A stretch of 64,000 nucleotides of DNA from Candidatus Sungiibacteriota bacterium (lineage in GTDB: Bacteria > Patescibacteriota > Minisyncoccia > Sungbacterales > HO2-52-23). Numbering within the stretch: the stretch's first letter is position 1; the number at the start of each line of letters is the position of its first letter. The notes under the pieces were generated by a model that did no database searches, was not told where the DNA came from, and saw only the letters and a program-made list of their open reading frames with translations. Location: NCBI GenBank assembly GCA_016206285.1, contig JACQRW010000007.1:16455-80454 (forward strand), written 5' to 3'. A program made the translations under genes and the position numbers. Shown piece by piece: positions 13,814 through 59,211 of this stretch.

Positions 13814-13837
13814 ACAATCGATATTAATTAGTTTACA

Positions 13838-15058: not shown

Positions 15059-15071
15059 GCGCGATAGACCG

Positions 15072-27247: not shown

Positions 27248-28039
27248 ATGTTTTATACATTACGGGTGCGGGCGCGCAATAATTCATTTCTCAAACGCGC
27301 CGTGCGCAAAACAAAAAAAATAATCGGGGTTAAAGACGCATCAAGCGATTTTTTTGATAATGCCGCGCTGGTAAAGAAATACACACCGGGAAAATCATTT
27401 GCCGATATAGGCTGCATGTGGGGCGTAGACGGATTTTTTTCTTTTCTGGCGGAAGAAAACGGAGCCGCCAAAGTAATGTCGGTTGATATATATCCGGAAA
27501 GCGCGAAGTTTTCAGAAGAAAAAGAACGCCGCAATTCCAAGATACAATTTGTGCAGGGAGATATTAATCTGCCGGACGTAACTGATACCATAGGCATATG
27601 CGACGTGGTATTTTGCTCCGGAGTGCTGTATCATACCCCGGACCCGGTCCATATGCTGACCCGCCTGCGCGTGATTTGCGGCGAAACGCTTATCCTGAAT
27701 ACCGCATCAATCCCGGAAATGCCCGGCATAAGAAACGCGGCTGTCTTTTATCCGTTTCTAAACGCCAAGCAGCGGAAAATCTGGAACCGGCATATCGGCA
27801 GCCAAAAAGGTATCACTGGACCATACGAGCCCGAAAGCGGTTATGGAAATTGGATGTGGGGCATGACTCCAAGCGCAATCGAATCCATGCTTCAATGCGC
27901 AGGATTTAAAGTGCAAGAGCGTTATATTTCACCGTTTCGCTCCGTATTCGTATGCAAAACAATTCCCATCCAATTCGTTGCCGAATCCGGCGAGTGGACC
28001 ACGCCCAAAAGCGGCGACTCTCTCAAATTTAGAAAATAG
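27248..28039 (+). CDS. Class I SAM-dependent methyltransferase
   Basis: DIGCMWGVDG SAM motif I; acidic residue after beta-2 (SVDIY); about 263 aa. Confidence 0.65.
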   Translation: MFYTLRVRARNNSFLKRAVRKTKKIIGVKDASSDFFDNAALVKKYTPGKSFADIGCMWGVDGFFSFLAEENGAAKVMSVDIYPESAKFSEEKERRNSKIQFVQGDINLPDVTDTIGICDVVFCSGVLYHTPDPVHMLTRLRVICGETLILNTASIPEMPGIRNAAVFYPFLNAKQRKIWNRHIGSQKGITGPYEPESGYGNWMWGMTPSAIESMLQCAGFKVQERYISPFRSVFVCKTIPIQFVAESGEWTTPKSGDSLKFRK

Positions 28040-28047
28040 AAGCACCT

Positions 28048-28824
28048 ATGCATATGAGCATCCGCGACCGGCTTAAGCGCATTACTCTTTTAAAAATTTT
28101 GGTTGTTATCTGGCGGGTATTCCGCAATAGGCACGGTTTTTTTGCCAAGATACGGGCGCTTGGTTCTTTCTTTGAATCATGGTCGGCATTCCGGCATATG
28201 CCCCGCAACAGTGCTTTCTTATTGAAAACGCATGACCTCTATCCCCGTTTGTTCGATAATACGCATGGAACCCCTATTGATCCGGTATATTTTTATCAAG
28301 ATACATGGTGCGCCGGAAAAATTTTCAGCCAGAAGCCGGAGCATCACTATGACATTGCGTCGGAAGCTGAATTTATCGGTATCATTTCGCAATTTGTGCC
28401 AACCACTATGGTGGACATCCGGCCGTTGCCGGTTACGCTGCCCAATCTTTCATTTATGCAGGGAGACACCACGCGGCTTCCATTTGACGACAGCAGCATC
28501 GCGTCATTGAGTTCCATTTGCGTGATCGAACACATCGGTCTTGGACGGTACGGAGATCCGCTTGATCCCTTCGGCTCTGAAAAAGCTCTTGCAGAAATGA
28601 TCCGCGTACTGGCGCCGGGCGGATCGCTTTATATTTCGGTGCCGATTGATGCGGAAAATAAGGTTTACTTCAACGCGCATCGCGCATTTTCCCCAAACTA
28701 CATTTTCAAACTCTGCATGCCTCTTACGCTCATTGAAGAGCGCTATGTATACGGCAACCGCATGGAACAAACATATGACCCCAAAAAGGGATTCGGCACC
28801 GGCCTTTATCATTTTAAAAAATGA
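28048..28824 (+). CDS. SAM-dependent methyltransferase-like protein (DUF268/Methyltransf_11-like)
   Basis: MVDIRPLPV..LSFMQGD..LPFDDSSI..ICVIEHIG..LAPGGSLYISVP pattern. Confidence 0.5.
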   Translation: MHMSIRDRLKRITLLKILVVIWRVFRNRHGFFAKIRALGSFFESWSAFRHMPRNSAFLLKTHDLYPRLFDNTHGTPIDPVYFYQDTWCAGKIFSQKPEHHYDIASEAEFIGIISQFVPTTMVDIRPLPVTLPNLSFMQGDTTRLPFDDSSIASLSSICVIEHIGLGRYGDPLDPFGSEKALAEMIRVLAPGGSLYISVPIDAENKVYFNAHRAFSPNYIFKLCMPLTLIEERYVYGNRMEQTYDPKKGFGTGLYHFKK

Positions 28825-29576
28825 AAAAACGTATGCATATAAAGCTCTCCTCGCATCGTACCGTCAAATTCATTCTTTTTCAGCGCTCGCAATATTTGCT
28901 TTGGCGCCGCAATAAAACTATACAGCGATTTGCTCGCGCGTTGCCCAGACGGCTTGCGTTCAGCCTTGAGGCGCTGGCAAGCAACTTCAATGCAACCGTA
29001 TCTCTGGAGGCGCTATTTACGAGAAAAAGCGTAGAAAAACTTTTCAGTGAAGAGATGACGCTGGAATACAACCAAATGAAACCCTATCTGCCGGCGCACG
29101 CCCGCACGATTCTTGATATCGGAGCAGGCGTAGGCGGCATTGACATACTGCTTGGCAAGCACTATGAGCAGGACAAGCCTATGATCTATCTGCTCGATAA
29201 GACAGAAATGCCTGCCAAGGTGTATTATAGCTTGCGGGAAAAAGGATGTTTTTATAACTCGCTGGAGCTTGGCCGGGATATGCTGGTTGAAAACGGCATC
29301 AAACCCGAACAAATTTTTTTGCAAGAGGCAACCGATGACAACCGCATTATCTCCGACACGAAATTCGATCTGATTGTCTCCCTTATCTCATGGGGATTCC
29401 ACTATCCCATCGCAACTTACCTTGACCAGGTATATGACAAGCTGGCCGAAGGCGGGGCGGTGATCACGGATGTGCGGAGACACGGCAACGGCATTGAGCT
29501 GCTGCAAAAAAAGTTTCCGAAAACCAAGATTATTTTTGAAGCGCAAAAACATGTTCGCATCGTTGCGTGGAAATAA
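28821..29576 (+). CDS. Class I SAM-dependent methyltransferase, paralog A
   Basis: ILDIGAGVGGIDILL motif I; LAEGGAVI. Confidence 0.6.
   Translation: MKKRMHIKLSSHRTVKFILFQRSQYLLWRRNKTIQRFARALPRRLAFSLEALASNFNATVSLEALFTRKSVEKLFSEEMTLEYNQMKPYLPAHARTILDIGAGVGGIDILLGKHYEQDKPMIYLLDKTEMPAKVYYSLREKGCFYNSLELGRDMLVENGIKPEQIFLQEATDDNRIISDTKFDLIVSLISWGFHYPIATYLDQVYDKLAEGGAVITDVRRHGNGIELLQKKFPKTKIIFEAQKHVRIVAWK
29082..29212. repeat. 131-nt tract 100% identical to 30867..30997 in the methyltransferase paralog
   Basis: ccctatctgccggcgcacgcccgcacgattcttgatatcggagcaggcgtaggcggcattgacatactgcttggcaagcactatgagcaggacaagcctatgatctatctgctcgataagacagaaatgcc occurs in both copies. Confidence 0.85.
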
Positions 29577-29595
29577 CAAAAGTAATTATCAGTCA

Positions 29596-29631
29596 GTATA
29601 CAAATTAAAACGATCGTCGAAATTTGTATAC
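29596..29631. promoter_or_regulatory. Second copy of the 36-bp GTATACAAATT-N14(CGATCG core)-AATTTGTATAC dyad element
   Basis: GTATACAAATTAAAACGATCGTCGAAATTTGTATAC has the same 11-bp arms and CGATCG centre as 8970..9005, and the same position between a stop codon and the next start (ATG at 29649). Confidence 0.55.
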
Positions 29632-29648
29632 TAAGAGAGAACCATAAT

Positions 29649-30620
29649 ATGAAGAAACATCTGATCATCCTCCGCCATAACAGCGGCAAGGGCGGCCACG
29701 GGCGGCTCGCAAACCAGCTTTGGAATTTTATGAGCATCTATGCGTATGCGCTTGAACGCGGATACGATCTTGAAAATTATTCGTTCTTTGAATACCATGA
29801 TTGCTTTCAGATTCCTCCGGTGCGAAATTTTCCGGTGCGGTGCCTTTTTTTCTCGCCATTTCCTTTTCTTGCAAAAAAGTTCGGGCAAACGCGTGCAGCA
29901 ATTTTTACCCGCAAAGTCTACAAGCTGTATGTAATGGCGGTCAGACTAAGACATGGCAAAACTTTGTTGAATTCCTACAACTCTCCCGATATTGCGGGAA
30001 TCTTTTATCTTCCGCCCTCCGAACCGGCCAGACCCGCGCTTCAGAAACTCGAGGACAACCCGCGCATCAAAAACATATACTTTGACGGCTGGCTTTTCCG
30101 AAACCCGGCCGGTGTAATGAAATATCACTCCGAAATTCTTGAATACTTCAAGCCAAAAGACGAGACGCGCAAAACGATAGCAGCATTTATGGAACCGCTG
30201 AAAACACAGTACGACAACCTGGTTGGCGTTCATATCCGGCAGGATGATTATAAAACGTTCAAAGGAGGCCGGTACTTTGTGGAGCAGGCGCGTATTCGGG
30301 AGATCCTTGACGAATATCTGCGGGAATTCAAAAAAGATCCGGAGCATACCTGTTTTATCATTACCTCGAACGGTCCCATTAAACGCGAGATATTTCAGGG
30401 ATTACATTTTGAAATAAGCAATCTCGGATTCATTGAAGATTTGTTCTTGCTTGCCTCATGCACTGCCATAATCGGCTCCGATTCAAGCTTTGGCAATTTC
30501 GCAGCCTACTACGGCAACACGCCGCATATTGTCTTTCAAAAAGAACCCATGGACTGGGAATACTACGCCGGAAAAACAAAATATTTCTGGAACAAGTATT
30601 GCACACTCGTGCATTTTTAA
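29649..30620 (+). CDS. Putative glycosyltransferase with GT11-like motifs (divergent)
   Basis: GKGGHGRLANQLWNFMSIYAYA resembles GT11 motif I (GGLGNQ.FQYA). C-terminal IIGSDSSFGNFAAYYG resembles the GT11 SSFSWWGAWL motif. Weak assignment. Confidence 0.4.
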   Translation: MKKHLIILRHNSGKGGHGRLANQLWNFMSIYAYALERGYDLENYSFFEYHDCFQIPPVRNFPVRCLFFSPFPFLAKKFGQTRAAIFTRKVYKLYVMAVRLRHGKTLLNSYNSPDIAGIFYLPPSEPARPALQKLEDNPRIKNIYFDGWLFRNPAGVMKYHSEILEYFKPKDETRKTIAAFMEPLKTQYDNLVGVHIRQDDYKTFKGGRYFVEQARIREILDEYLREFKKDPEHTCFIITSNGPIKREIFQGLHFEISNLGFIEDLFLLASCTAIIGSDSSFGNFAAYYGNTPHIVFQKEPMDWEYYAGKTKYFWNKYCTLVHF

Positions 30621-30650
30621 TTGCCATGCAAGCCCTTTTTTAGTACACTT

Positions 30651-31355
30651 ATGACTATGATTATCCCGAATAAAGCAATTAAATACATACTATTCCAGCG
30701 GACGGAATATCTGCTCTCCATGAAAAGTCCGTTATTAAACCGTTTCGTGGTACGCGTACCATCGCGCATGTACAATCTGGCAGTTACACTGGAGGCTCTC
30801 CTGACCAAACCGCGGGTCAAGCGTCTGTTTCAAGAAGACATGGAGCGCGAGTATGCCATTTTGAAGCCCTATCTGCCGGCGCACGCCCGCACGATTCTTG
30901 ATATCGGAGCAGGCGTAGGCGGCATTGACATACTGCTTGGCAAGCACTATGAGCAGGACAAGCCTATGATCTATCTGCTCGATAAGACAGAAATGCCCAA
31001 AAAAGTCTACTACGGCCTGGAACAAAAGGGCTGTTATTACAACTCGCTTTCTTTGGCAAAAGATATGCTCGTTCAAAATGGCCTTACTGCCGGCCATATT
31101 ATCACTCAAGAAGCAGACAATGATTACCGAATCAATTTTGATGCAAAATTCGATCTGGTGATCTCGCTGATTTCATGGGGATTTCACTATCCTATTGCGA
31201 CCTATCTTGATCAGGTTTACGCGCTGCTGGCACCTGGCGGCATACTTATCCTTGACGTGCGCAAGGGCACAGAAGAAGAGATAATGAAAAAATTCGGTAA
31301 CGCAACAAAAATTTTTGAAGCGCGGAAATATTTCAGAGTCATGGCGCGAAAATAG
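30651..31355 (+). CDS. Class I SAM-dependent methyltransferase, paralog B
   Basis: ILDIGAGVGGIDILL; contains a 131-nt tract 100% identical to paralog A. Start taken at the first ATG (MTMIIP); the ORF-track start at 30621 is a TTG. Confidence 0.6.
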   Translation: MTMIIPNKAIKYILFQRTEYLLSMKSPLLNRFVVRVPSRMYNLAVTLEALLTKPRVKRLFQEDMEREYAILKPYLPAHARTILDIGAGVGGIDILLGKHYEQDKPMIYLLDKTEMPKKVYYGLEQKGCYYNSLSLAKDMLVQNGLTAGHIITQEADNDYRINFDAKFDLVISLISWGFHYPIATYLDQVYALLAPGGILILDVRKGTEEEIMKKFGNATKIFEARKYFRVMARK

Positions 31356-31380
31356 ACTTTAAACTTTTTTATATCGCCTT

Positions 31381-32544
31381 GTGCGGCTCATCTACCTCAC
31401 CTCAAAAAGTTATCCGGCAAGCACTGCAGACCATATCTATATCCTCCAGCTCGCGCGAGGTTTTTTTCACGTACTCAGAGAAGATTTTTTGCTCGTAGTG
31501 GCCGGCAACCGATCTGAACCGGTCCGATCAAGCCATCAAGACGGACAGACGTCTGATCACACAACTGCATCGGATGATTTCCGGAATCTGCCGGTATACA
31601 GAGTCGGCTGGCGCTATGGAAGATTCCGAACGATTTTCTATTTTTTTTGGCTTCCCTATTTTATTATTTCACATAAGCATGCCGGGCACAGCACTGTCTT
31701 TTTTTCAAACGATCCGAATCTGCTGCTGGTGCTTATCTTCTGGCGGATAGTCTTTTACTATCGCATCGTATCTGACTGGCATATGCTTTTTAACGACTGG
31801 CGGGACCGCTTCATCATGCAAAAAAGCGACCAGCTTATCACTACCTCGCAGAAATTGAAAAACGCGATGATACAAACCTCCGGCATCCGGGAAGAGACGA
31901 CCTGCGTTGCATACGGAGGCATTAATCTTGCGCTCTATCAACCTCTTGACCAAAGTGCGGCGCGCACATTACTGCGCCTCCCGCAAGATAAATATATTGT
32001 GGCATATATCGGTTTTTTTAAAACGCTTGGTATGGAAAAAGGAGTGGGTACTATGATCGAGGCTCTGCCGCTCCTGCCGGAGAATATTCTTATGCTTTTT
32101 GTCGGGGGTAGCGACCGCGAGATAACGGAATATCAGAAGTTTGCGGATGCACGGCATGTCGGCAACCGGTGCATATTTATAGGCAAGAAAAAACCAACGG
32201 AACTTCCGCCATATGAACAGGCGGCCGATCTCCTCTCCATCCCCTATCCGGATTTGCCGCATTTCAGGGATTACGGCTTCCCCATGAAAGTATACGAGTA
32301 CATGGCGAGCAGACGGCCGATTGTCTACTCAAAACTTGAGCTTGTCGAAGAAGTGATCGGCGACTGCGCATTTGGTTTTATCCCAGGCAGTATGCAGGAT
32401 TTTGCCCGGGCAGTGCAGGAAGCTGCTTCCCACCCGGATCAAGCAAAAGCATACGCAGAATCGGCGTATGCTAAAGTGCAGAATTATACATGGAATAGAA
32501 AGGCGGAGCAGATTGCGGACTTCATCACTTCTTCTTCCCGATGA
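31381..32544 (+). CDS. Glycosyltransferase family 4-like (GT-B)
   Basis: C-terminal FPMKVYEYMASRRPIV motif (EX7E-type). Confidence 0.7.
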   Translation: MRLIYLTSKSYPASTADHIYILQLARGFFHVLREDFLLVVAGNRSEPVRSSHQDGQTSDHTTASDDFRNLPVYRVGWRYGRFRTIFYFFWLPYFIISHKHAGHSTVFFSNDPNLLLVLIFWRIVFYYRIVSDWHMLFNDWRDRFIMQKSDQLITTSQKLKNAMIQTSGIREETTCVAYGGINLALYQPLDQSAARTLLRLPQDKYIVAYIGFFKTLGMEKGVGTMIEALPLLPENILMLFVGGSDREITEYQKFADARHVGNRCIFIGKKKPTELPPYEQAADLLSIPYPDLPHFRDYGFPMKVYEYMASRRPIVYSKLELVEEVIGDCAFGFIPGSMQDFARAVQEAASHPDQAKAYAESAYAKVQNYTWNRKAEQIADFITSSSR

Positions 32545-34162
32545 TATAGAGATGCGCCGCCACGGCATCGGCTCCGGGCATGCTCATGAACAGGAGGTCG
32601 AGGTACTTGAGGGGGCCGAGTACAAGCATGAAAACGTGCGCCAAAACAGGCGCTATTTTTTTTGATCCGAACGCGAAAATCACGCCAAGCCAGTATGCAA
32701 GAAACATAAGAAACGCGCTCCATGGTCCGGATCGCACGCCGCTCTCAATAATCTCAAGATCAGGAAAAAGCTGTTTGAGCCCGCTGACGGTCCAGCGGTT
32801 AAAATCGTCCGGAGAGGCGTGATACGGGTGCACAAACGGCGCACTCACATAGAGAAGACCGCCGGGTTTGAGCACGCGCGACATCTCGGCCGCAACTTTC
32901 ACCGGATCTGCTACATGCTCCAAGAGAGACTCGCTCACCACGCCGTCCGCCGTACCGGCAGGAAACGGAAGAGCCGAGGCATCGGCCACCACGTCAACCT
33001 GCGGAAACGGGTACACGTCAATGTTGATGAATTCCTCACCGAGCCGTTCGGGCCCGGATCCAACATCAAGAAGGATCGGGCCATCGGGAAGCATGGGAAG
33101 AATTTTTCGGGGACCGTTGCGTATCATAAGCACCGGACAAAAAAGATGCCAGATGCCATAATACAGTTTCGGAAATTGCTTGAGAAATGACTTGAGCCAA
33201 TTCACCCCGGATACATGCTCTTCGGTGTTTAATGCAAGCGCATCTTGGCTGATCAGCAAGGGTCTGCCTGCAGAATCAACGGCAAAACTACCGTGTTCGG
33301 CACAAACATAACCGGAGTCCCACGCCGATTGCGGAAGAAAATTCACAGATACGAGCATTGGTACGGGCGCGCCTGCATAAGGTACGGAAGATGAAGACTG
33401 TAACATCTTGCCGCAAAACGGACAACAAAGAAGCTTTGAGACATCTTTGGGAACATAGGCAATCGGTTTCCGGAGATATAAAAGCCGGTCTCCGGCCAAA
33501 GCAAGTACGGCATGAATTCCATCGCGATATGTTATCTTTTTGCCTTGAGCAACCGGCCGCGGATTGTGCGATATCGGCACCTCGCCGATAGACAATCCCC
33601 TGCGCGCGAGTGCCGCAGTAAAGAGCAACTCGGATTCGAAACCTCCGGCTCGGAAATCGCGTGCGGCCGATGCGGGAAAAAGTTTGTAGCACGTCCATGC
33701 ATCGGTCAGAGAAAGTCCGTACGACAGATTGAGAAGCCGGGTAATAGCCCATACGCCGGCACGGGGTATCAAGAAACCCTCGCGCTTTTTTTTACTCAAA
33801 TTGCGCGAACCGTAAATCACATTTCCCTTGCCTTCTTCAAGCCCCCGGATGAGACTTGGAATTTCGTTCGGATCATATTCAAGATCGGCATCCTGGATAA
33901 GCGCGTATTGCCCGGTCGCCTCTTGAAGCCCTTGGCGAACCGCTGAACCTTTTCCCCCATTCTTTTCCTGCAGGATCACCTTGATGTGGTCTTGGTATGC
34001 GGCCAAGATATCTCTGGTGCCATCGTGCGATCCGTCATCAACCACAATGATTTCTTTTTCCCATGATCCGGGCAATTGCACCTGCTCCACCCGGTGAAGC
34101 AGTTCGCGGATCGTTTCCCGCTCGTTGTAGCAGGGAATAATAATCGAAAGTTTTTTAGTCAT
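32525..34162 (-). CDS. Fusion protein: GT2 (Dpm1/polyprenyl-phosphate sugar synthase-like) + Trm112-like zinc ribbon + class I SAM methyltransferase + C-terminal TM helix
   Basis: LSIIIPCYNERETI...VVDDGSHDGT (GT2), CPFCGKML (zinc ribbon), LLDVGSGPERLG...LKPGGLLYVSAP (MTase), hydrophobic C-terminus. Start taken at the ATG for MTKKLSIII. Confidence 0.75.
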   Translation of the reverse strand: MTKKLSIIIPCYNERETIRELLHRVEQVQLPGSWEKEIIVVDDGSHDGTRDILAAYQDHIKVILQEKNGGKGSAVRQGLQEATGQYALIQDADLEYDPNEIPSLIRGLEEGKGNVIYGSRNLSKKKREGFLIPRAGVWAITRLLNLSYGLSLTDAWTCYKLFPASAARDFRAGGFESELLFTAALARRGLSIGEVPISHNPRPVAQGKKITYRDGIHAVLALAGDRLLYLRKPIAYVPKDVSKLLCCPFCGKMLQSSSSVPYAGAPVPMLVSVNFLPQSAWDSGYVCAEHGSFAVDSAGRPLLISQDALALNTEEHVSGVNWLKSFLKQFPKLYYGIWHLFCPVLMIRNGPRKILPMLPDGPILLDVGSGPERLGEEFINIDVYPFPQVDVVADASALPFPAGTADGVVSESLLEHVADPVKVAAEMSRVLKPGGLLYVSAPFVHPYHASPDDFNRWTVSGLKQLFPDLEIIESGVRSGPWSAFLMFLAYWLGVIFAFGSKKIAPVLAHVFMLVLGPLKYLDLLFMSMPGADAVAAHLYIIGKKK

Positions 34163-35582
34163 AAATTGGAAATACTCTCCTGAGTAGTCGGCTGCCAAGC
34201 AGTGTAAACCCATAGACGGCAAACGTCAAAATAAGCGCATTGACCGGGATACGGAAACGCGCATTAACACCGAGCCCGTTTATGGCCGTAGTAAGCGCAA
34301 AGTATGCGATCAGAAACAGTGCAATTGTTCCGGGCAAATGAAAACGGCGGTCCCGGAAAAACAGCACAATCCCGCATAAAAACAAGAGCGTACCCAGAAT
34401 CCAAATCATGCGGGCACACATAACGATAATTGCCGGAGAAAACAGCATGTCTTTGAGGAGAGGCATCGCGCGAATCGGATTTTGCAGTGCAAGGATGAAC
34501 GACGGCCGGCTGCCCGCCATCGGCAGACTGATGCCCGCATGCTGCAACACCACGAGCATGCCGTCATGCGTGAAAAATGTAGTTAGCGTAACGCCTATAG
34601 ATTTGATAATTCCTGCCGGATGTTTTTTTAGCTCTGCGACCGCCCGATCCTGATAGGTCTTGGATGTGGCAAGCGTAATATCCCGCCAATCAAGATTTTG
34701 TTCCCGAAACCATCGGTCATACTCTGTTTGAAAACCGGTTCCATTTTCAAGTGCCCGCACCGAAGGAACCAGATAGACCATAAGATTGAAGCTCGGCTGT
34801 GCGCTCATGCCAAGCACGCCGAATTCATGTCTATTGCGCAGAAGCCACGGAGCGATAATTGCAAGAAATACCATAAAAAATAATGCGAATTGCCCGAGCA
34901 ATTTTTTTGACCAACGGTCGCGCCGTTCGACTGAGCTCACGGTCGAAGTCCAATACCATGCCAGCCCCGCCGGCAACAAAATCGGAAGGTATTGCACGGT
35001 GGGTTTGACCAGTGTTGCCAGACCGAGAAACAAGCCGGCCATCGCGCTCGAGCGCAATGATGGCATTTCCGTATAACGGAACAGGTATAGAAGAAAGAGA
35101 AGAAACAGCGCCGTAAAAAGCGTTTCTGTGTAAAAAATAAAAGAAAGCAGAATCGAATACGGTTCAAACGCAAGCAGCCACCCAACCCACCAACTCATGC
35201 TCCGCGATCCGGTGATCTGTCGGCTGACCAGCATGCCCAGCAGCGGGATCAGACTTCCGACAAGCATCTGACACAAAGCAACGACCCAATAGCTTCCGGT
35301 CAGGTATAAAGGAATGGCAAGAAAAAGAGGATACACCGGGGGGCGCAAAGGATTTGGCAGATAGGGCGCATGATCCTCCCAACTTATTCCGTGCCCTTGG
35401 ACCAGATTCCTGCTCAACTCAAAATAACCGTCGTCCCCATGGATGGTATTGATGAGATTCCCCTGCTCCGCATGCAGATTGATGCTGAACAAAACAATCC
35501 GCGCCAGCAGTGCTACGCAAAAAAGAAGAATTTCAACTTTATACTTTTTTACCCACGAGGTAATTCGCAGATTAAACGCCAT
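34155..35582 (-). CDS. GT-C fold membrane glycosyltransferase (PMT_2/ArnT/GT39-GT83-like)
   Basis: Multi-TM protein with the GDDGYFELSRNLVQGHGIS...PLRPPVYPLFLA N-terminal region typical of dolichyl/undecaprenyl-phosphate-sugar-dependent transferases. Confidence 0.7.
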   Translation of the reverse strand: MAFNLRITSWVKKYKVEILLFCVALLARIVLFSINLHAEQGNLINTIHGDDGYFELSRNLVQGHGISWEDHAPYLPNPLRPPVYPLFLAIPLYLTGSYWVVALCQMLVGSLIPLLGMLVSRQITGSRSMSWWVGWLLAFEPYSILLSFIFYTETLFTALFLLFLLYLFRYTEMPSLRSSAMAGLFLGLATLVKPTVQYLPILLPAGLAWYWTSTVSSVERRDRWSKKLLGQFALFFMVFLAIIAPWLLRNRHEFGVLGMSAQPSFNLMVYLVPSVRALENGTGFQTEYDRWFREQNLDWRDITLATSKTYQDRAVAELKKHPAGIIKSIGVTLTTFFTHDGMLVVLQHAGISLPMAGSRPSFILALQNPIRAMPLLKDMLFSPAIIVMCARMIWILGTLLFLCGIVLFFRDRRFHLPGTIALFLIAYFALTTAINGLGVNARFRIPVNALILTFAVYGFTLLGSRLLRRVFPIYD

Positions 35583-35587
35583 GTCAG

Positions 35588-36418
35588 CTATAAAGACTGG
35601 ATAAGCTTGGTAAGAGCTTTCTGATCGTTGACTGCAAGCCAGCACTGCCCAGGAATCCCAAACGAGTAGAGTTTCCGCTCTTCAACCAGCAAGGGAAACA
35701 AAACACTCTCAAAATCAATTTTTTTATTGAGATCAAACAGCCGCGGAAAGTACTCGTACGCCGCGGGAGAAAACAGAGTTACGCCGATATGCGCCGGAAC
35801 CGGAATATGCGGGTACATCTCGGTTTGTACAACCACCCCATCTTTGATCTTCATGCCGGTAAACGCATACGGAGAGCCATCCGCGACCACTGAGGTTGCG
35901 ATCATACCCCGCCGGGTACCGGCAAGATGCGCGGCAACAGCATCCCGGACAAAATCTCCATCATAGTTGATGATTTGATCGTCGGGATTATGCACGATAC
36001 AACTCCGATCCAGAGCGATTGATCCGTTTTCAAGCGCATGACGCATCGCACCTCCTTTGCCAACAGGCTGTTTAGGATCGCGGCTGTATGTTATGCTGAT
36101 TCCGAGTCGGCTGCCATCACCCAGTAAATTTATAATAGAGTCGGCATTATGAAAAACGAGTGCGGCGAAGTTTTTAAACCCGGCATCGCGGTACATGCGG
36201 ATTGTCCGCTCAATCATGGTGTCGCCATTGGGAAGCGTCACCGAATTTTTCTGAACATGGTGGGAATCGGAAATTGTTTTGAAGCGCGAACCTTCCCCGC
36301 CCGCCATAAGCGCCACCACACAGTTTTGTGTGAACGCGCTCCATGCGGCATCGTCGAGTTGTTCCCGGCTTCCCTGGCTGTATATTTCCTGCTGCAGTTT
36401 TTTGAGCGCATCTTTCAT
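35588..36418 (-). CDS. Sugar-phosphate nucleotidyltransferase-like protein
   Basis: VVALMAGGEGSRF resembles the (L)xGGxGTRL NTP-transferase motif. Start taken at the internal ATG (MKDALKK), just downstream of the preceding gene's stop. Confidence 0.65.
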   Translation of the reverse strand: MKDALKKLQQEIYSQGSREQLDDAAWSAFTQNCVVALMAGGEGSRFKTISDSHHVQKNSVTLPNGDTMIERTIRMYRDAGFKNFAALVFHNADSIINLLGDGSRLGISITYSRDPKQPVGKGGAMRHALENGSIALDRSCIVHNPDDQIINYDGDFVRDAVAAHLAGTRRGMIATSVVADGSPYAFTGMKIKDGVVVQTEMYPHIPVPAHIGVTLFSPAAYEYFPRLFDLNKKIDFESVLFPLLVEERKLYSFGIPGQCWLAVNDQKALTKLIQSL

Positions 36419-36426
36419 AAAATGAA

Positions 36427-37584
36427 TTATCGCGGACGTTCCATAAAACCCAAGATTGCCCGTGCACGATTTTCCCATGTGTACTGCTGCACTTTGACAA
36501 ATGCAGCCGGGACAAGCGCCTCGGCGATTTCCGGATGCTCCATTGCCTTTTGTATGCCCGCGGCAAGTTCCAGCGGATCATCCGGCACCACAAGAATCGC
36601 GCTTGCATCATCCACAATCTCGGTGATTGAAGGGATGCGGGATGCTACAATCGGCCGCTTGCTCGCCATATATTCAAACAGCTTCATCGGCGAGGTATAG
36701 TATTTTGAAATATCCTCTTTTGCGGTATTAGGCAGCACCAGGACATCGCCAGCTTTTTGCCATAGCGGCATTTCCTGATGAGAACGATAACCCTCGATCC
36801 GTATCTTTGGGTTGCTGCCGTACGCTTGACGAAAACGCATAATATCGTCTCCCGAACCTCCTATAAATACCACCAGAAAGCCGTCCGGAAGGTAATTGGC
36901 GGCCTCGGCCAGCGTATCCACACCCTTCCAGACAAACAAACTTCCCGTATAGATAACCATATATCGCTTATGCTCCAGATGCAAGAGGCGCCGCGCTTCT
37001 TCCTTGGTTGCCGTAATGTCAAAAAGCCCTATGTCCACGGCATTAGGCTGGTACAAAACCTTAGGCGCACTTTCGGGAAAGAGCTCCTGAAATTTCTTTG
37101 CTTTCCATTTGTTGTGGATCAAAATCCAGCGCATACTGCGGCAAAAGCGGGCAAAGAGAAACAGCTTGCTTTCCGGAAAGTCATGCATCTCATAAAACGT
37201 ATTGCAAAAAGAAAAAGAACACAGCCATAGCGGCAAGATCTCATTCGAGTAGACGATATCCGTTTTTACCGCACATCGCAGAAGATATCGCCAAGAGCTT
37301 AGCGCAAAAGATAAAGAGATCAGAAAAAAATTAACCGCATCAGGGATCCCCCATCGATAGCCATCCATTATAGGAAGGAAGATAACGGAAAAGTTTTTAC
37401 GGATGCCGTAATGCGTAAACGGATCCGCTACCAGACGTCCGATACGCCGAGGCACCAACAGCGTCACGTCCACTCCCTCTGCCGCAAACACTTCGCAGCT
37501 TTTCGCGGCAAAAAGCGCCGCCGCCTTCTCGCTCGGAAATCTGCCCCCATACATGACAAACATGCGCCGTCTTTGTTTTTGCAT
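36427..37584 (-). CDS. Glycosyltransferase family 4
   Basis: SPMKLFEYMASKRPIVAS EX7E motif. Confidence 0.75.
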   Translation of the reverse strand: MQKQRRRMFVMYGGRFPSEKAAALFAAKSCEVFAAEGVDVTLLVPRRIGRLVADPFTHYGIRKNFSVIFLPIMDGYRWGIPDAVNFFLISLSFALSSWRYLLRCAVKTDIVYSNEILPLWLCSFSFCNTFYEMHDFPESKLFLFARFCRSMRWILIHNKWKAKKFQELFPESAPKVLYQPNAVDIGLFDITATKEEARRLLHLEHKRYMVIYTGSLFVWKGVDTLAEAANYLPDGFLVVFIGGSGDDIMRFRQAYGSNPKIRIEGYRSHQEMPLWQKAGDVLVLPNTAKEDISKYYTSPMKLFEYMASKRPIVASRIPSITEIVDDASAILVVPDDPLELAAGIQKAMEHPEIAEALVPAAFVKVQQYTWENRARAILGFMERPR

Positions 37585-37606
37585 AATCTATCGTTTTACG
37601 ATGTCC

Positions 37607-38662
37607 TTATATTTTTAGTTCCATTATGCACATGATTTTCTCGATCAACCCTTCGACGCGATGATGTTCAACCACAATAGCACGCATTGAGTGCCTAAGA
37701 TCGTCACGAGCAAGAATATCCATGTGCATGAGCACCATGAGCTTTTTTGCAAGCTCAACAGAGTTCTTTTTTTCAAACATGAGCAGGTCGCAATGTTTTC
37801 CAAGTACGTCCATATACGCCTCGTTGCACGTCAACACAGGGAGTCCGGTTGCCATGGCCTCGAGCCCGGCTTTGTCGAGACTGCCGGTAAGTCCGGTGTT
37901 CACGAAAATATCGGCACTTTGAAGATACACCAAAATATCTTTATGCGGCACTCCGCCAATAAACCGGATATGCGGTCCCATTTTTTTTTCTTTAACCGCA
38001 CGATACAGTTCCTCGGCATAGGACTCCTGCCCCCCACGACCCGCACTGCCGATAATATCCGCCTCAAACCGCTCGCCAGCCTCCGCAAGCAATACAAGCG
38101 CTTGTATCAGCGTCTGCTGATCTTTTGCCGGGGAAAGTCTGCCAATCATGATAATCTTTGGCACTACATTTTCTTGCCGCACGATAGGAGCAAAGTGATC
38201 CGTATCAATCCCCTGGCCGACAATACGCACCTTCTTACTTGGCAGTCTGAAGCCGCTTGCTGTCGAGGTAAATATGACATCAGCCATTTTCTCCCCGGCG
38301 CGCAAAGACATACTTATTGCCCCATGCGCATACCAAAGTGATATTTTTTTCCGAAGCAGCCGCCACTCCAACCATCCCAATATGACATAAATCTGATTCA
38401 TATGCACAAACACCGCATCATATGCATTTCGCTCGCGCCAGATTAAATACCAGAAACGCAGCGCGTATCGTAAGCGGGATGACCCGCGCTCTTTTCCCAG
38501 AGAAAAAACTTTCACGTTCTGCGGCAAATGATGCGTTCCTTCTTCAAGACAAATCACCGCCAGCGCCTCGCACCGTTTGGCGAATTCCTCGATCCACCGG
38601 TGCATAAATCCAAGCACCTGGTCCCGCTCGTCAACTTTTTGCGTGATAATCAGTAATTTCAT
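37607..38662 (-). CDS. Glycosyltransferase family 4
   Basis: GLEAMATGLPVL and overall GT-B layout. Confidence 0.75.
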   Translation of the reverse strand: MKLLIITQKVDERDQVLGFMHRWIEEFAKRCEALAVICLEEGTHHLPQNVKVFSLGKERGSSRLRYALRFWYLIWRERNAYDAVFVHMNQIYVILGWLEWRLLRKKISLWYAHGAISMSLRAGEKMADVIFTSTASGFRLPSKKVRIVGQGIDTDHFAPIVRQENVVPKIIMIGRLSPAKDQQTLIQALVLLAEAGERFEADIIGSAGRGGQESYAEELYRAVKEKKMGPHIRFIGGVPHKDILVYLQSADIFVNTGLTGSLDKAGLEAMATGLPVLTCNEAYMDVLGKHCDLLMFEKKNSVELAKKLMVLMHMDILARDDLRHSMRAIVVEHHRVEGLIEKIMCIMELKI

Positions 38663-38681
38663 AACAGATAAGACTGCTATC

Positions 38682-39863
38682 CTACTCCTTCCTCTTGCGT
38701 GTCTGTATATAGACTATTTCGTCTTTACTAATTTGAAACGCACTAGAGCTATCTCCATCTTTCCCAACGACGAAGACAAATTGACTAGATTCTCCAATCA
38801 AGAATAAATGCCGCTCCTTAGAAAGAGGAAGTTCTTGCTTCATTTTAACCTCGACTTCTCTAGGCTCACCACCACCAATAGAGAAAGGGATCCTTGGAAA
38901 AATGATTTGCCCAAACAAAATAAGAGCGCCGATAATTGGAATAAAGATGTGCTGAAATGTTAGTTGCAAGCTGTTAAGTGAGTTCACACTGCCGAAACTT
39001 TTGAATATATCCAACGATAATCCATCTTTAGGAAGATAGAAGTTCAGAAAAAAGTAAGTGGTGAGAATAGTGACATAGAACCATGCGAAAACTAAATTAG
39101 GAGTTAATGTTTGATGACTATTAAAAGAATTAAAATCAAATAGGCTGACTTTAAGTTTCAGATAGGAGTAATAAGCGATACTTGCTAAGACGCAGAGAAT
39201 GAGAGTCTCTATAGAACACCTTAAGAGATATAACGGGGTTAAGAGCTTTTTTTCCGCTTTGGGATTTTCTTGAATCTCTTCTTTTTTTACTTCATCGGCA
39301 CTAAGGGGTTCTTTTTTTCTTCTTGGAACATTGTCTTGGATAATAAAAATGAGGACTAAAACCAGAAATGCGATGAGGGAGTACGAAAATGCGTATATGG
39401 CAAATTTAATAATAAAATTAGAACCACCGCCTAGTTTCAAGTTAAATCCATCGATAAAATAACCAATAAAATCATAATTTCCAAACCATGGTTTAAAAGT
39501 AAGACTCTCTTCCTTTGCTGGAGAGATGTACTTTCCTAGATCAAAGAATAAAGAGAGGGCATAGCTAGCACCCCATATTAGTGACCAAAACGTAAAGTAA
39601 GATTGAAAGCGATCAGACCAGCCCTCTACATCATAAATTTTTTTCAGAGAAACATCCTTGTATAACCGCCACACGATTAATAGGACAAGAGTAATTGCAA
39701 GAAAAGAGAAAAAGCCAGCAATAATAAATCGGGAATTAACTACATCGAAACTTACAATGCCAAAACGGGCAAAATATGAAGTTAGCGAGATAAAGCCAAA
39801 AAGATAAAGTACAACTCCGCAGGCAACAAATAATTTTGATATCTCTTTCACTTTCTCAAACAT
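38682..39863 (-). CDS. Polytopic integral membrane protein, low GC (candidate Wzy-like polymerase/ligase or other glycan-processing membrane protein)
   Basis: 393 aa with about 10 hydrophobic segments; markedly AT-rich relative to neighbours. Confidence 0.5.
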   Translation of the reverse strand: MFEKVKEISKLFVACGVVLYLFGFISLTSYFARFGIVSFDVVNSRFIIAGFFSFLAITLVLLIVWRLYKDVSLKKIYDVEGWSDRFQSYFTFWSLIWGASYALSLFFDLGKYISPAKEESLTFKPWFGNYDFIGYFIDGFNLKLGGGSNFIIKFAIYAFSYSLIAFLVLVLIFIIQDNVPRRKKEPLSADEVKKEEIQENPKAEKKLLTPLYLLRCSIETLILCVLASIAYYSYLKLKVSLFDFNSFNSHQTLTPNLVFAWFYVTILTTYFFLNFYLPKDGLSLDIFKSFGSVNSLNSLQLTFQHIFIPIIGALILFGQIIFPRIPFSIGGGEPREVEVKMKQELPLSKERHLFLIGESSQFVFVVGKDGDSSSAFQISKDEIVYIQTRKRKE

Positions 39864-39888
39864 ATAGATAATTTAAAAAGATTACCAA

Positions 39889-41016
39889 CTATACTGTACA
39901 TATCTCAAAACTCTTCCGGTACAATTCAAGATATTCGGCTTCGCTGTGGGGTTTTATTTCGGCAACCGTACGGCGGGCAGCATCTACAAATGCGCGCCGC
40001 TTTTCCGGATGGCGATAGAGATCAAGGACCGCATCCAGAAACGCCGGAGCGTCTCCAACCGGCACTACTCGGCCATTCACGCCGTCTTTGACCACCTCTC
40101 CGGCCAACCCTACATCCGTCATCACCAGCGACACTCCGGCCGCCATTGCTTCTATCGCAACCAATCCCCACCCTTCGTAGTTTGACGAAACCAACACAAT
40201 ATCGAAACATTTATAAAACGATGCAAGATCGTTGCGCCACGGTTCAATGAGAACATTTTTCTCCAATTGATAATTGATAATTGATAATTGATAATTTTTC
40301 CTGTCCGGTCCATCGCCGACCAGCACGAGTACCGTGCGAGGTTCTTGCTTCACCAACTCAGCCATCATCTCGATCAACATGCTGAAATTCTTTTCCTTGT
40401 CTACAAAACGCCCGACTGCGATCATACGAAAGGCATATTCTTTGAGACGGGACAGATCCTCAGCCTTGGGAGATGAATAAGAGAACGACGCAAGATCTGT
40501 ATATATCGGCAATACGGAAATTTTCGATTTCGGGATACGCAACCCGGCAAGCAATGAACGCTTGATGCGCTCGCTCACTACGCGTACGCAATCAGCCCGC
40601 GGGAGCAGAAATCGAGCCAGTAGAACACGAAAATATTCCTTCAGGGATGCCCGCCGGTACAGCGGATTCAAGACATCGGTATGCACTTGCAGCTGCAGTT
40701 TAATGCCAAAACGCCGGGAAATATGAAAAGCAATCAATCCGACTTCGTCAGGCCCTTGTGTGCTAACCACGTCAAAATGAACGGAGCGAGCAAGCGAACG
40801 CGCAATCGTACGCATGCGCCAGCGGCCCATAAATGGATTTTTAGCCGATGCCGGATACAGAAAAAGTTTCCCGCTTTGCTGATTTTCAGACTCGGGCCCT
40901 GCCAATACTACGACATGCAACTCATCAAAAAGCTCCGCATAGCGCTCTATGCGTTTTCGCGCGTTGCTTCCGGCAACGCAGATATTCGGGTCTTCTGAAA
41001 GCATTAAAATCTTCAT
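39889..41016 (-). CDS. Glycosyltransferase family 4 (contains an internal 7-nt x4 tandem repeat)
   Basis: GLVAIEAMAAGVSLV GT4 C-terminal motif. AATTGAT x4 at 40264..40296 encodes NYQLSIINYQL. Confidence 0.75.
   Translation of the reverse strand: MKILMLSEDPNICVAGSNARKRIERYAELFDELHVVVLAGPESENQQSGKLFLYPASAKNPFMGRWRMRTIARSLARSVHFDVVSTQGPDEVGLIAFHISRRFGIKLQLQVHTDVLNPLYRRASLKEYFRVLLARFLLPRADCVRVVSERIKRSLLAGLRIPKSKISVLPIYTDLASFSYSSPKAEDLSRLKEYAFRMIAVGRFVDKEKNFSMLIEMMAELVKQEPRTVLVLVGDGPDRKNYQLSIINYQLEKNVLIEPWRNDLASFYKCFDIVLVSSNYEGWGLVAIEAMAAGVSLVMTDVGLAGEVVKDGVNGRVVPVGDAPAFLDAVLDLYRHPEKRRAFVDAARRTVAEIKPHSEAEYLELYRKSFEICTV
40264..40296. repeat. Tandem heptanucleotide repeat (AATTGAT)x4 plus partial, inside a GT4 coding sequence
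   Basis: Direct reading of the sequence: aattgataattgataattgataattgataatt. Confidence 0.8.
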
Positions 41017-43250: not shown

Positions 43251-44659
43251 GAGATGAGAAAATGCTTCACGAAGAAAAACCCGATTGCGCCAAGCGCGCT
43301 TAGTCCGATTGCTCCGGCAAACATCATCCGGGATGAAACGGAAAACCCTGCCGCAATTGCCGCGGGATTGTGAGACTCATTGTGTATATTCTGTGAAGCG
43401 GCGCTTTCATCAGGCGCAAAATCCATGGGATGCGATGCTTCTTGAGACTGCGGTACGGCGCTTTTCGGTGAGGAAGCGCCCGCCGTAAGATTTGCCGCTG
43501 ACGCGTTTTGAATCTTTGCCGGCTGGGAGGATGTTGCTATGGATCCGGCAGGACTGTTTGGAGTCTCCGGCTCAATATACGAAAGGGCGATCGTGCCATT
43601 CGGATACTGAATCGTAAGCGAATTCCGCACTCCGGCCATAAGAAGTCCGGTCACCGCATTGGAGAGCGACAGATCTCCCCCGGCCGCAATTTTGGTCTTT
43701 GGGGGAATAAAAAACTCCTTATGTGACCCGTCTTCGATGATCCAATCGCCAATATCTACTTCTGTTTTAAGCGGATTAACAAGCTGTATATATCCCTCTC
43801 CTCCGGATACAACGCGGCCAACACGCATTTGGTTCTCAAGCACCCGGACTGTCGCATAGTCAGAAGACGAGTATTCACCCGAAGAAACATGCAGTCCCAC
43901 AATATACGTGCCGGGAATGCGAAAAATATGCTCGATAACTTTCCCCTCCTGCGTCTCACCATCGCCGAAATTCCACCAGAAACGCGCAGGAGCCAGGGGC
44001 TCTTTTTTAAGCCCCAGCGCAATGCCCCTGAACTCAACCAGCGAACCTGCGGTTGACGTCTGATCCGAGCCTGCATCAACGCTGATCTGTGCGTTGGAAG
44101 AAATTGCCGGAGCAGATGCAGAAGGCGGTGGCGCAGCTCCGACGCTTCCGGTCGGAGCCCCGACCCCCTGCCCCGACGGTACCGTCGGGGTGAAGGGCGT
44201 CGGGGGAGTAAGAACACTGCTCGACCCGTCATTGGATACGGTAATCGCCTGACTGGTTGTCCATGATGTTCCCGATTCCTTGCCGCGTGCTTTTACCGTA
44301 AGCATATAAAGCCCCGGAGTGGAATCTCTGTAATAGAACGAGCGGTTTGCAGTTCCTTTGCTCATCACCCACGCACTCACGGGACTTGAACTTGCGTTCA
44401 CAAACTCTCCAGTTGAAGACGTCGAAGAAAATTCCAGATAAATAGTCTCTATGCTTTTGATTTCCTTGTCGTTCACATCCTGTGCCTGAATGGTCAGAGC
44501 GCCTGAACGTTTTGCCGGCTGTACGGTTTGCGGCTCTGTGGTAAATATGAAATGCGTAATTTCAGAAGCGGCAAAGACGCTTCCGGCAAAAGATACTATA
44601 TACACAAAAAGGAAAACAGCCAGAAGCTGTTTTCCTAAATTGCGCGCTCCTATTCCCAT
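43247..44659 (-). CDS. Surface-anchored protein with PKD-like domain, N-terminal signal/TM and C-terminal TM anchor
   Basis: WWNFGDGETQEG...GTYIVGLHV (PKD signature), hydrophobic N- and C-termini, Ser/Thr/Pro-rich linkers. Confidence 0.6.
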   Translation of the reverse strand: MGIGARNLGKQLLAVFLFVYIVSFAGSVFAASEITHFIFTTEPQTVQPAKRSGALTIQAQDVNDKEIKSIETIYLEFSSTSSTGEFVNASSSPVSAWVMSKGTANRSFYYRDSTPGLYMLTVKARGKESGTSWTTSQAITVSNDGSSSVLTPPTPFTPTVPSGQGVGAPTGSVGAAPPPSASAPAISSNAQISVDAGSDQTSTAGSLVEFRGIALGLKKEPLAPARFWWNFGDGETQEGKVIEHIFRIPGTYIVGLHVSSGEYSSSDYATVRVLENQMRVGRVVSGGEGYIQLVNPLKTEVDIGDWIIEDGSHKEFFIPPKTKIAAGGDLSLSNAVTGLLMAGVRNSLTIQYPNGTIALSYIEPETPNSPAGSIATSSQPAKIQNASAANLTAGASSPKSAVPQSQEASHPMDFAPDESAASQNIHNESHNPAAIAAGFSVSSRMMFAGAIGLSALGAIGFFFVKHFLIS

Positions 44660-44675
44660 ATCGAAGACCCGGAGA

Positions 44676-45428: not shown

Positions 45429-45518
45429 ACAATCATGCTACCATAGCCGGCCAACAATGGTCAAACAAAAATCCCCCCGAAGGGGGATTTTGCACTCACA
45501 CACAAGGATTGTGAGATT

Positions 45519-59153: not shown

Positions 59154-59211
59154 AATTTCCGATAGATATTTTACAATTTGCATAGAAGTGATATTAATTT
59201 TTAATTTCCAG

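Follow-up and report, generated by a model that had tools for sequence, protein, structure and literature searches.

Two neighbouring genes, found on the minus strand of a 64,000-nucleotide (nt) stretch of contig JACQRW010000007.1 from a Candidatus Sungiibacteriota bacterium (the window, analysed over its whole length), encode a membrane glycosyltransferase (GT) of the GT-C fold and a fusion protein composed of a family 2 glycosyltransferase (GT2), a cysteine-containing ribbon and an S-adenosylmethionine (SAM)-dependent methyltransferase (MT) with a hydrophobic hairpin. This pair probably forms the core of a four-part version of the bacterial GT-A/GtrA/GT-C three-component systems of extracytoplasmic glycosylation (reviewed in PMC8035078; PMC11127046), with the MT acting on the lipid-linked sugar. 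The assignment of the GT2 and the GT-C as a lipid-linked-sugar synthase and a transferase that uses its product is supported by the database matches of the GT2, the fold of the GT-C, their conserved and coupled pairing, Rosetta-stone fusions among homologues and the presence of GtrA genes in relatives. Parcubacteria and other members of the candidate phyla radiation are abundant, almost wholly uncultured and believed to rely on cell-to-cell contact, and little is known of their surface chemistry. What is new here is the joining of an uncharacterised membrane MT family to a known three-component scheme, together with a GT-C clade seen so far only in Patescibacteria.

According to the list of open reading frames (ORFs) of the window, the GT-C gene lies upstream of the fusion gene. 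Its TAA stop codon (34157-34155) shares the sequence ATGACTAA with the ATG of the fusion (34162-34160), so that adjacent GT-A and GT-C genes, a hallmark of three-component systems, overlap here by 8 nt; this stop/start overlap is translational coupling of the two. The start of the GT-C gene at ATG 35582 agreed with the start sites of its homologues, and an alignment of 27 homologues of the fusion placed the conserved start at ATG 34162, TTG 34222 being used by none of the 27. A preliminary description of the window, made from the letters and the translated ORFs, had left 4 nt between the stop of the fusion and the start of a GT-C behind it, and was wrong in both order and spacing. The 565-amino-acid (aa) fusion ORF that it reported is present at 32525..34222 but begins at the unconserved TTG, the conserved ATG giving 545 aa, and the neighbouring ORF with multiple transmembrane (TM) segments was confirmed, ending at 35582/35645.

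Pfam assigned residues 6-165 of the fusion to Glycos_transf_2 (117 bits). By sequence, the solved structures closest to the GT2 were Pyrococcus furiosus dolichyl-phosphate mannose synthase (DPMS; 1e-17), three ArnC structures and GtrB, and DPMS, ArnC and GtrB were also the best matches by fold; a GT-A catalytic domain with a DXD motif, nearest to polyprenyl-phosphate sugar synthases of the DPMS/GtrB/ArnC type, was therefore present. Among NCBIfam models, the best match for the fusion was AglJ (90 bits against a cut-off of 325 bits). Unlike DPMS, GtrB and ArnC, the GT2 domain lacks TM helices. Its conserved PR....GKKIRY motif bears a loose likeness to the R..G.SK loop, and polyprenyl phosphate is its putative acceptor. 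Homologues of the fusion numbered hundreds in Parcubacteria, with 50-80% identity. Both the fusion and the GT-C had a 100% identical counterpart in a Candidatus Sungbacteria metagenome-assembled genome, which makes the host a Parcubacterium (Patescibacteria).

The MT module was the best-conserved portion of the fusion (mean column identity of 77%) and matched Pfam Methyltransf_11/23 over residues 353-459. Motif I (LDVGSGP) and several acidic residues were invariant across the alignment of the MT family. The module has the Rossmann-like fold, glycine-rich motif I and SAM-binding acidic residues of a class I SAM-dependent methyltransferase; since the SAM-binding residues are invariant, catalysis would appear to be retained. 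In the AlphaFold2 (AF2) model, two hydrophobic helices (residues 480-496 and 504-525) form a hairpin inserted between the last two β-strands of the MT fold (469-478 and 537-544). This hairpin, spanning residues 479-528, was the only hydrophobic segment in the entire fusion and is, according to the model, its sole membrane anchor. The ribbon between the GT2 and the MT was less well defined: the AF2 predicted local distance difference test score (pLDDT) fell below 50 at residues 260-280 of the linker, the cysteines were missing from many family members in the homologue alignment, and the fusion of the window gave no Pfam Trm112p match, a stand-alone homologue (P0254) reaching 24.3 bits against a cut-off of 22. 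The Dpm1-like GT2 and the SAM methyltransferase of the preliminary description were thus borne out. Its CxxC zinc ribbon exists as a CxxC...CxxH pattern, although with cysteines that are not conserved in the family, and its C-terminal TM helix corresponds to a hydrophobic segment that is in fact a two-helix hairpin inside the MT fold.

The GT-C scored just over the cut-off for Pfam PMT_2 (30.9 against 26.1 bits) and short of it for Pfam PMT (PF02366; 17.2 against 22.7 bits), and neither PMT_4TMC nor MIR domains were found in it with Pfam. No solved chain in the PDB, PMT and ArnT included, was matched by its sequence or by a 32-member profile, and no ArnT match was obtained in NCBIfam. STT3 was likewise not matched (Pfam), and the protein, at 475 aa and without a large soluble domain, does not have the make-up of an oligosaccharyltransferase (OST). 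The AF2 model (pLDDT of 90, predicted template-modelling score of 0.91) displayed a clear GT-C fold; fold comparison (AglB 23.8, Pmt4 22.7, ArnT 21.7, ALG12 21.4) did not tell the families apart, and in Foldseek searches PglB, ArnT, AglB and PMT were all inside one order of magnitude of E-value, with the likeness to OST restricted to the common GT-C membrane core. A conserved HGDDGYYE motif follows TM1, with its two Asp codons at 35430-35435, in the position of the catalytic acidic residues of GT-C enzymes, so that a multi-TM fold and acidic residues in the first extracytoplasmic loop were both found. The enzyme is therefore a GT-C that is not assignable to PMT, ArnT or OST. All labelled homologues were from Patescibacteria, to which the clade appears to be restricted.

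A profile scan of metagenome contigs with an alignment of the MT only produced 78 loci. When genome contigs were scanned with an alignment of the whole fusion, the matches listed were mostly GT2-only relatives from many phyla, recovered via the generic QDADLEY motif. Adjacency was assessed in a sample of 72 non-redundant loci, 50 of which extended 1.5 kb or more upstream of the GT2/MT unit. A GT-C was encoded directly upstream of this unit in 43 of the 50 (35 of PMT_2 type and eight of YfhO type, the latter ~ 830 aa long). Coding overlaps of 1-38 nt, most commonly 4, 8 or 35 nt, were seen in 29/46 related loci. The same modules were also found in shuffled arrangements. For instance, P0190, a protein of another Sungbacterium, joins GT-C, ribbon and MT and is followed by a separate 239-aa GT2, a single ORF in P0027 combines the C-terminal part of a GT-C with the MT and the GT2, and in several loci a stand-alone MT of ~ 300 aa is located between the GT-C and the GT2. 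The MT and the GT2 should both be cytoplasmic, because the former needs SAM and the latter a nucleoside diphosphate (NDP)-sugar, and together with the shuffled fusions this would place the C-terminus of the GT-C, which carries a basic tail, in the cytoplasm as well. For this last placement the evidence consists of the basic tail and the one GT-C–MT fusion P0190, the TM count of the GT-C obtained by simple hydropathy being unreliable.

Unbiased clustering of ORFs from 80 loci revealed a set of conserved neighbours: three GT4 families (34-43 loci each), a GT11 (31), GtrA (31, as a rule immediately upstream of the GT-C gene), an epimerase (22) and a DUF268 methyltransferase (21). The canonical order was [PKD/LTD] – GT4 ×2-3 – GT4 – GtrA – GT4 – GT-C – GT2-MT, converging on GT11 – DUF268-MT – GT2 genes, with the GT11 and the DUF268-MT in the same convergent position in relatives as in the window. 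The window fits this order except that GtrA was not detected and that a nucleotidylyltransferase gene precedes the GT-C, as it also does in the Sungbacteria relative L084. A homologue of the PKD/LTD surface protein (28-41% identity) heads the cassette in eight further fetched loci, each time with a Ser/Thr/Pro-rich stretch of 30 residues (15-21 of 30) near residue 160-200. However, this gene was detected in no more than about half of the loci whose sequence upstream of the GT4 genes was visible. The 1239-aa protein encoded further upstream in the window was absent from all related loci and was accordingly rejected as a conserved partner.

Some related loci contained additional genes of the same kinds. 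A second GT2 and GT-C pair without an MT, composed of a 239-264-aa GT2 homologous to the GT2 domain of the fusion and a ~ 500-aa GT-C, was seen in L081 (18728-20946), L094 (4117-4755), L137, L143, L146, L147 and L160. These loci also hold paralogous small MTs that share the ...YHP.P.DYFRYT motif and the hydrophobic C-terminal hairpin. In addition, a ~ 620-660-aa ATPase with weak matches to DUF87, T4SS-DNA_transf and TrwB is encoded directly upstream of the PKD/LTD gene in several relatives (L081 1-386, L083 1466-3346, L117, L143 and L146), a position at which no such gene is present in the window.

The MT family extends well beyond the fusions. An exhaustive search with a cut-off of E ≤ 1e-30 yielded 294 cluster representatives. 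Most of these are 270-300 aa long and stand alone, again with the ribbon and the hairpin; their names are generic only (for example, 'class I SAM-dependent methyltransferase') and their labels are Patescibacteria or Planctomycetota. Stand-alone members in other lineages adjoin GT2, GT-C and small-flippase-like genes: in L164 the neighbours were a GtrB-like GT2 with two TM helices, a small EamA-like protein with four TM segments and, as judged by eye, a NodB-type deacetylase look-alike; in L165 the neighbour was a GT2; and in L166 a PMT_2 GT-C, with a GT2 close by.

Collectively, these observations can be accommodated by the following sequence of events. At the cytoplasmic face, the GT2 would transfer a hexose from a nucleotide sugar, probably supplied as NDP-sugar by the nucleotidylyltransferase whose gene lies 5 nt upstream of that of the GT-C, to polyprenyl phosphate. 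The TM-less GT2 would be held at the membrane by the fused MT module, with the hairpin as its only anchor, and the MT module would methylate the lipid-linked sugar using SAM as the donor. The modified donor would then be flipped across the membrane, for which purpose GtrA may be encoded in relatives, and the GT-C, through the DD motif in its first outer loop, would move the (methyl-)sugar to an acceptor outside. Both the hexose and the final acceptor are putative. The lipid-linked sugar is the most economical choice of substrate for the MT, yet this is the weakest step of the scheme, and we see the arguments for and against it as evenly poised. Slightly more doubtful than that is the broader proposition that polyprenyl-phosphate O-methyl-hexose is a donor of a new class and that the membrane methyltransferases which make it are a new family.

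A number of points weigh against the scheme as a whole. The MT could act on a cytoplasmic glycan intermediate, or could serve the TM-less GT2 as a partner in the manner of GacJ. A GtrA homologue was absent from the 64-kb window in tblastn searches with three GtrA proteins of relatives. Among the fold neighbours of the GT2, the soluble GT-A enzymes GpgS and MpgS scored at a similar Z of ~ 20, and the structural arguments used here all rest on predicted structures. Methylation is not mentioned in a review of three-component systems (PMC8035078). A literature search found no characterised member of the MT family, and a full-text search produced no report of a methylated polyprenyl-phosphate sugar or of this fusion among the papers covered. 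The nearest mention in the literature was an uncharacterised methyltransferase with two TM segments in a GtrA-type cluster of Actinoplanes.

As regards a different role for the MT, it might methylate a glycan assembled in the cytoplasm by GT4 and GT11 enzymes, or function mainly as a membrane partner of the GT2, as GacJ does for GacI. The hairpin is the sole anchor of a GT2 without TM helices, systems are known in which a GT-A requires a separate small membrane protein (PMC8035078), and the locus contains several further MTs, including hairpin-bearing paralogues in relatives. On the other hand, the invariance of the SAM-binding residues suggests that catalysis is retained, the module is also found fused to the GT-C or free-standing between the GT-C and the GT2, and anchoring cannot be the only role of the MT, because a stand-alone relative (L164) adjoins a GT2 with TM helices of its own. 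We therefore judge such alternative roles to be unlikely. Modification of lipid A or some other membrane lipid in the manner of ArnT, which the preliminary description had kept as its alternative, was rejected as scarcely credible. Some sources annotate the homologues as 'ArnT-like', ArnT is among the fold neighbours of the GT-C and ArnC among the best matches of the GT2; however, neither NCBIfam nor the PDB gave a sequence match at the level of ArnT, genes for ArnA, ArnB and ArnD, and an arn operon as such, were not found in the window, and the host is a Patescibacterium. Patescibacteria are monoderm and are not known to have lipid A or lipopolysaccharide. Of the earlier label 'PMT_2/ArnT type', only the GT-C fold and the Pfam PMT_2 assignment were retained.

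With respect to the acceptor, a wall-associated glycopolymer or lipoglycan that receives side chains is the likeliest candidate, although it falls a little short of an even balance. GT4, GT11 and MT enzymes would build a lipid-borne glycan inside, and the GT-C would add a methylated branch or cap outside, as in the glycosylation of lipoteichoic acid (LTA), wall teichoic acid (WTA) or rhamnan, or in the mycobacterial pathway of phosphatidylinositol mannosides and lipomannan. In this mycobacterial pathway, GT4 enzymes work inside and GT-C enzymes use polyprenyl-phosphate mannose outside. The partner GT-C is of PMT_2 or YfhO type depending on lineage, and both families are known for the decoration of teichoic acids and wall polysaccharides (PMC8035078). 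Furthermore, the architecture of the whole locus is kept across Parcubacteria (GT4, GtrA, GT-C and GT2-MT facing GT11, DUF268-MT and GT2), the numerous co-conserved cytoplasmic GT4, GT11 and MT genes indicate a complex glycan, the double GT4 is similar to glycolipid and glycopolymer GT4 enzymes, and the window encodes a Wzt ATPase with a Wzt_C domain beside a rhamnosyl O-methyltransferase. Less easily reconciled with such an acceptor are the conserved PKD/LTD gene heading the operon, which is left without explanation, and the fact that a phosphoglycosyl transferase, a polymerase and an exporter are not part of the conserved cassette in related loci; in addition, we know of no glycan structure from Parcubacteria.

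The preliminary description had favoured protein O-glycosylation of the Ppm1/Pmt kind, in which the GT-C would place a (methyl-)hexose on Ser/Thr residues of the PKD/LTD linkers and possibly of the 1239-aa protein. The PKD/LTD gene does belong to the operon of the pair and overlaps the GT4 gene that follows it by ATGA; its product has a signal/TM segment and, at the opposite end, a TM anchor; and the eight homologues heading cassettes elsewhere each keep a Ser/Thr/Pro-rich stretch. In streptococci, regions rich in Ser/Thr are O-glycosylated by a GT2 together with a GT-C, and genes for the adhesin substrates are part of the pgf operon itself (PMC12041528). However, those streptococcal GT-Cs are of YfhO type (PMC12041528), whereas PMT_2-type GT-Cs of monoderms mostly decorate LTA, WTA, rhamnan and secondary wall polysaccharides (PMC8035078). 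The GT-C of the window lies outside the PMT family by Pfam score and lacks PMT_4TMC and MIR, solved PMTs were not matched by sequence, and its fold, equally close to AglB, Pmt4, ArnT and ALG12, does not discriminate between families, so that equivalence to Ppm1/Pmt could not be upheld. The PKD/LTD gene accompanies only about half of the informative loci, the 1239-aa gene is not conserved beside the cassette and apparently belongs to a separate transcript, and modification of a protein with a single sugar would leave the co-conserved cytoplasmic GT4, GT11 and MT genes unexplained. Taken together, a protein acceptor reached in this way seems rather unlikely to us.

A further version, which we consider improbable, would make the locus a bacterial counterpart of the archaeal Agl pathway, with a methylated oligosaccharide built on polyprenyl monophosphate and transferred en bloc to the Ser/Thr/Pro-rich linkers of the PKD/LTD protein. 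It is suggested by the lack of a phosphoglycosyl transferase in the cassette, by AglJ as the best NCBIfam match and by AglB as the top fold match. An AglJ-like GT2 would prime polyprenyl monophosphate, GT4 and GT11 enzymes would extend the lipid-linked sugar, hairpin-anchored MTs would methylate the oligosaccharide and the small GT-C would then transfer it, which would explain a conserved cassette without a phosphoglycosyl transferase, a polymerase or a transferase of the O-antigen-ligase type.

Returning to the organisation of the window (Table 1), the pair ends a compact minus-strand string of genes (45428..32525) with gaps of no more than 25 nt. The string runs from a TPR protein gene, probably the first of the operon, through PKD/LTD, double GT4, GT4, a 393-aa membrane protein, two GT4 and the nucleotidylyltransferase to the GT-C and the fusion, with ATGA overlaps between PKD/LTD and double GT4 and between double GT4 and the following GT4. 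The PKD/LTD protein, whose Ser/Thr/Pro linkers were confirmed, is a candidate acceptor. Family matches of the nucleotidylyltransferase were weak and mixed (UGPase, MurU, RmlA and GlmU). The 393-aa protein had no Pfam or NCBIfam match and no homologue among the 80 related loci; in a window without GtrA, it could be a replacement flippase or polymerase. A consensus scan of the minus strand identified a GC-rich hairpin followed by a T-run (45473-45487) right after the 1239-aa gene, as well as a promoter-like site with an extended -10 TG (45464-45435) ahead of the TPR gene, and for this reason the 1239-aa gene is probably transcribed apart from the glycosylation operon. The surface protein genes had been placed about 10 kb from the pair; both are indeed 9-12 kb away, with PKD/LTD inside the same string as the pair.

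Table 1. Coordinates of the gene pair, its domains and the surrounding genes in the window
Feature	Position	Strand	Remarks
GT-C gene	35582..34155	minus	475 aa from ATG 35582; GT-C fold membrane glycosyltransferase, Pfam PMT_2
GT2-MT fusion gene	34162..32525	minus	545 aa from ATG 34162; GT2, ribbon, SAM methyltransferase, hydrophobic hairpin
GT-C stop/fusion start overlap	34155..34162	minus	ATGACTAA, 8 nt
GT2 domain of fusion, DPMS/ArnC/GtrB type	33443..34162	minus	residues 1-240; DAD motif QDADLEY; conserved PR....GKKIRYRDG motif
Linker with Trm112-like CxxC...CxxH ribbon	33248..33442	minus	includes a lineage-specific insert of 28 residues with low model confidence
Class I SAM methyltransferase module	32528..33247	minus	residues 306-545; motif I LDVGSGP; HPYHASPDDFNRW motif
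Hairpin of two hydrophobic helices	32579..32728	minus	residues 479-528
Sugar-1-phosphate nucleotidylyltransferase	35588..36418	minus	5 nt upstream of GT-C; alternative start 36478
GT4, 385 aa	36427-37584	minus	conserved GT4 cluster
GT4, 351 aa	37607-38662	minus	conserved GT4 cluster
393-aa protein, ~ six TM segments	38682-39863	minus	in operon; low-GC island, 41% vs ~ 49%
GT4, 375 aa	39889-41016	minus	conserved GT4 cluster
Double GT4, 745 aa	41013-43250	minus	resembles glycolipid/glycopolymer GT4 enzymes
PKD/LTD surface protein	43247..44659	minus	N-terminal signal/TM segment, C-terminal TM anchor, Ser/Thr/Pro-rich linkers
TPR protein, N-terminal TM segment	44676..45428	minus	TPR gene at the same position in L084
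1239-aa PG_binding protein	45519..49238		upstream of the string
Convergent string, same conserved locus	27248..32544	plus	overlaps 3' end of fusion by 20 nt
MT	27248-28039	plus	convergent string
DUF268 MT	28048-28824	plus	convergent string
MT-like	28821-29576	plus	convergent string
GT11	29649-30620	plus	convergent string
MT-like	30621-31355	plus	convergent string
GT4	31381-32544	plus	last of convergent string; 20-nt overlap with fusion

Other parts of the window also displayed features of glycan synthesis. At 99-1828 (plus strand), the gene for a CmcI-like rhamnosyl O-methyltransferase comes after that of a Wzt-type ABC-transporter ATPase, which has a glycan-binding Wzt_C domain; this combination is characteristic of a polysaccharide that depends on an ABC transporter and is methylated at its chain end. 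An asparagine-synthase-like glutamine amidotransferase (5922-7790, plus strand) is encoded among glycan genes and has homologues in nine related loci; its presence hints that a uronic acid or similar residue is amidated. In the sugar-nucleotide part of the locus (11972-16040, minus strand), a thiamine pyrophosphate-dependent acetolactate-synthase-like enzyme, a class I/II aminotransferase and a UDP-glucose/GDP-mannose dehydrogenase-like protein stand together, an unusual mix for sugar modification. A C-methyltransferase with Methyltransf_13/14 domains (19597-20847, minus strand), conserved in 13 related loci and which we take to be of the NDP-hexose C-methyltransferase type, suggests a branched-chain sugar in the glycan. 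Within the glycan locus at 23820-27199 (plus strand) are genes for ATP-grasp_2/Citrate_bind and CoA_binding/Ligase_CoA proteins, both recurring in the Sungbacteria relative L084, a C-terminal fragment of citrate synthase and a hexapeptide acyltransferase; these may supply an unusual acyl-CoA for acylation of the glycan. Outside this context, the minus strand at 58695-59309 carries the gene of a nickel superoxide dismutase (Sod_Ni, E 1e-43).

Because it is conserved across many lineages of Parcubacteria, the module described here, together with the ~ 20-kb glycan locus, probably builds a major surface glycoconjugate with methylated sugars. If the MT does act on a polyprenyl-phosphate sugar, a new editing step would be added to a widespread mechanism of glycosylation, and a function would be provided for a family of proteins labelled generically as 'class I SAM-dependent methyltransferase', its Planctomycetota-labelled members included.

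Among known systems, the archaeal Agl pathway (AglJ/AglB) resembles what may take place at the locus: polyprenyl monophosphate is primed by a DPMS-like GT2, the lipid-linked glycan is the substrate of a SAM methyltransferase, and a GT-C delivers it to a surface glycoprotein; it differs in that AglJ was matched far below its cut-off and in the periplasmic domain of STT3/AglB, which the GT-C of the window lacks. WsaE, from the S-layer glycan pathway of Geobacillus stearothermophilus, is another single polypeptide with methyltransferase and GT2 domains in a surface-glycan context. Unlike in the fusion of the window, the methyltransferase of WsaE is N-terminal and acts on a rhamnan chain linked to undecaprenyl diphosphate, alongside Leloir rhamnosyltransferases and with no GT-C partner. 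The Ppm1/Pmt machinery of actinobacterial protein O-mannosylation also pairs a polyprenyl-phosphate sugar synthase with a GT-C and makes Ser/Thr/Pro-rich secreted proteins plausible acceptors, but its GT2 is fused to an Lnt-like domain rather than to a methyltransferase, and the GT-C of the window falls under the Pfam PMT threshold and has no PMT_4TMC. In the ArnC/ArnD/ArnE-F/ArnT pathway, a GT2 makes an undecaprenyl-phosphate sugar, the lipid-linked sugar is edited and a GT-C transfers it, and ArnC is among the best GT2 matches here. ArnD, a deformylase that edits undecaprenyl-phosphate 4-deoxy-4-formamido-L-arabinose (Und-P-Ara4FN) at the cytoplasmic face before flipping, provides a precedent for such editing, although the edit proposed here is methylation and not deformylation, the window has no arn genes and its GT-C has no ArnT-level similarity.

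The streptococcal Pgf (PgfS/PgfM1/PgfE/PgfM2) and GtrB/PgtC2 systems act on Ser/Thr-rich regions of surface proteins, which they O-glycosylate (PMC12041528). Like pgf, the operon of the window combines a GT2 and a GT-C with a gene for a surface protein (PKD/LTD here, adhesin substrates in pgf); unlike the streptococcal systems, which have YfhO-type GT-Cs and no methyltransferase, it encodes a PMT_2-type GT-C, with YfhO-type partners in some relatives. The closest parallel is offered by the three-component systems, such as GtrABC of Shigella and Salmonella phages, CsbB/GtcA/YfhO and GtlA/GtcA/GtlB, which act on LTA and WTA, and GacI/J/K/L (PMC8035078; PMC11127046). The window departs from them in that no GtrA gene was found in it and in possessing an obligatory third catalytic module, the hairpin-bearing SAM methyltransferase fused to the GT2 or the GT-C. 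It shares with them a polyprenyl-phosphate-type GT2 beside a GT-C of PMT_2 or YfhO type, the GtrA gene found in 31/80 related loci and, as in GacI/GacJ, a GT-A without TM helices that would rely on a partner in the membrane.

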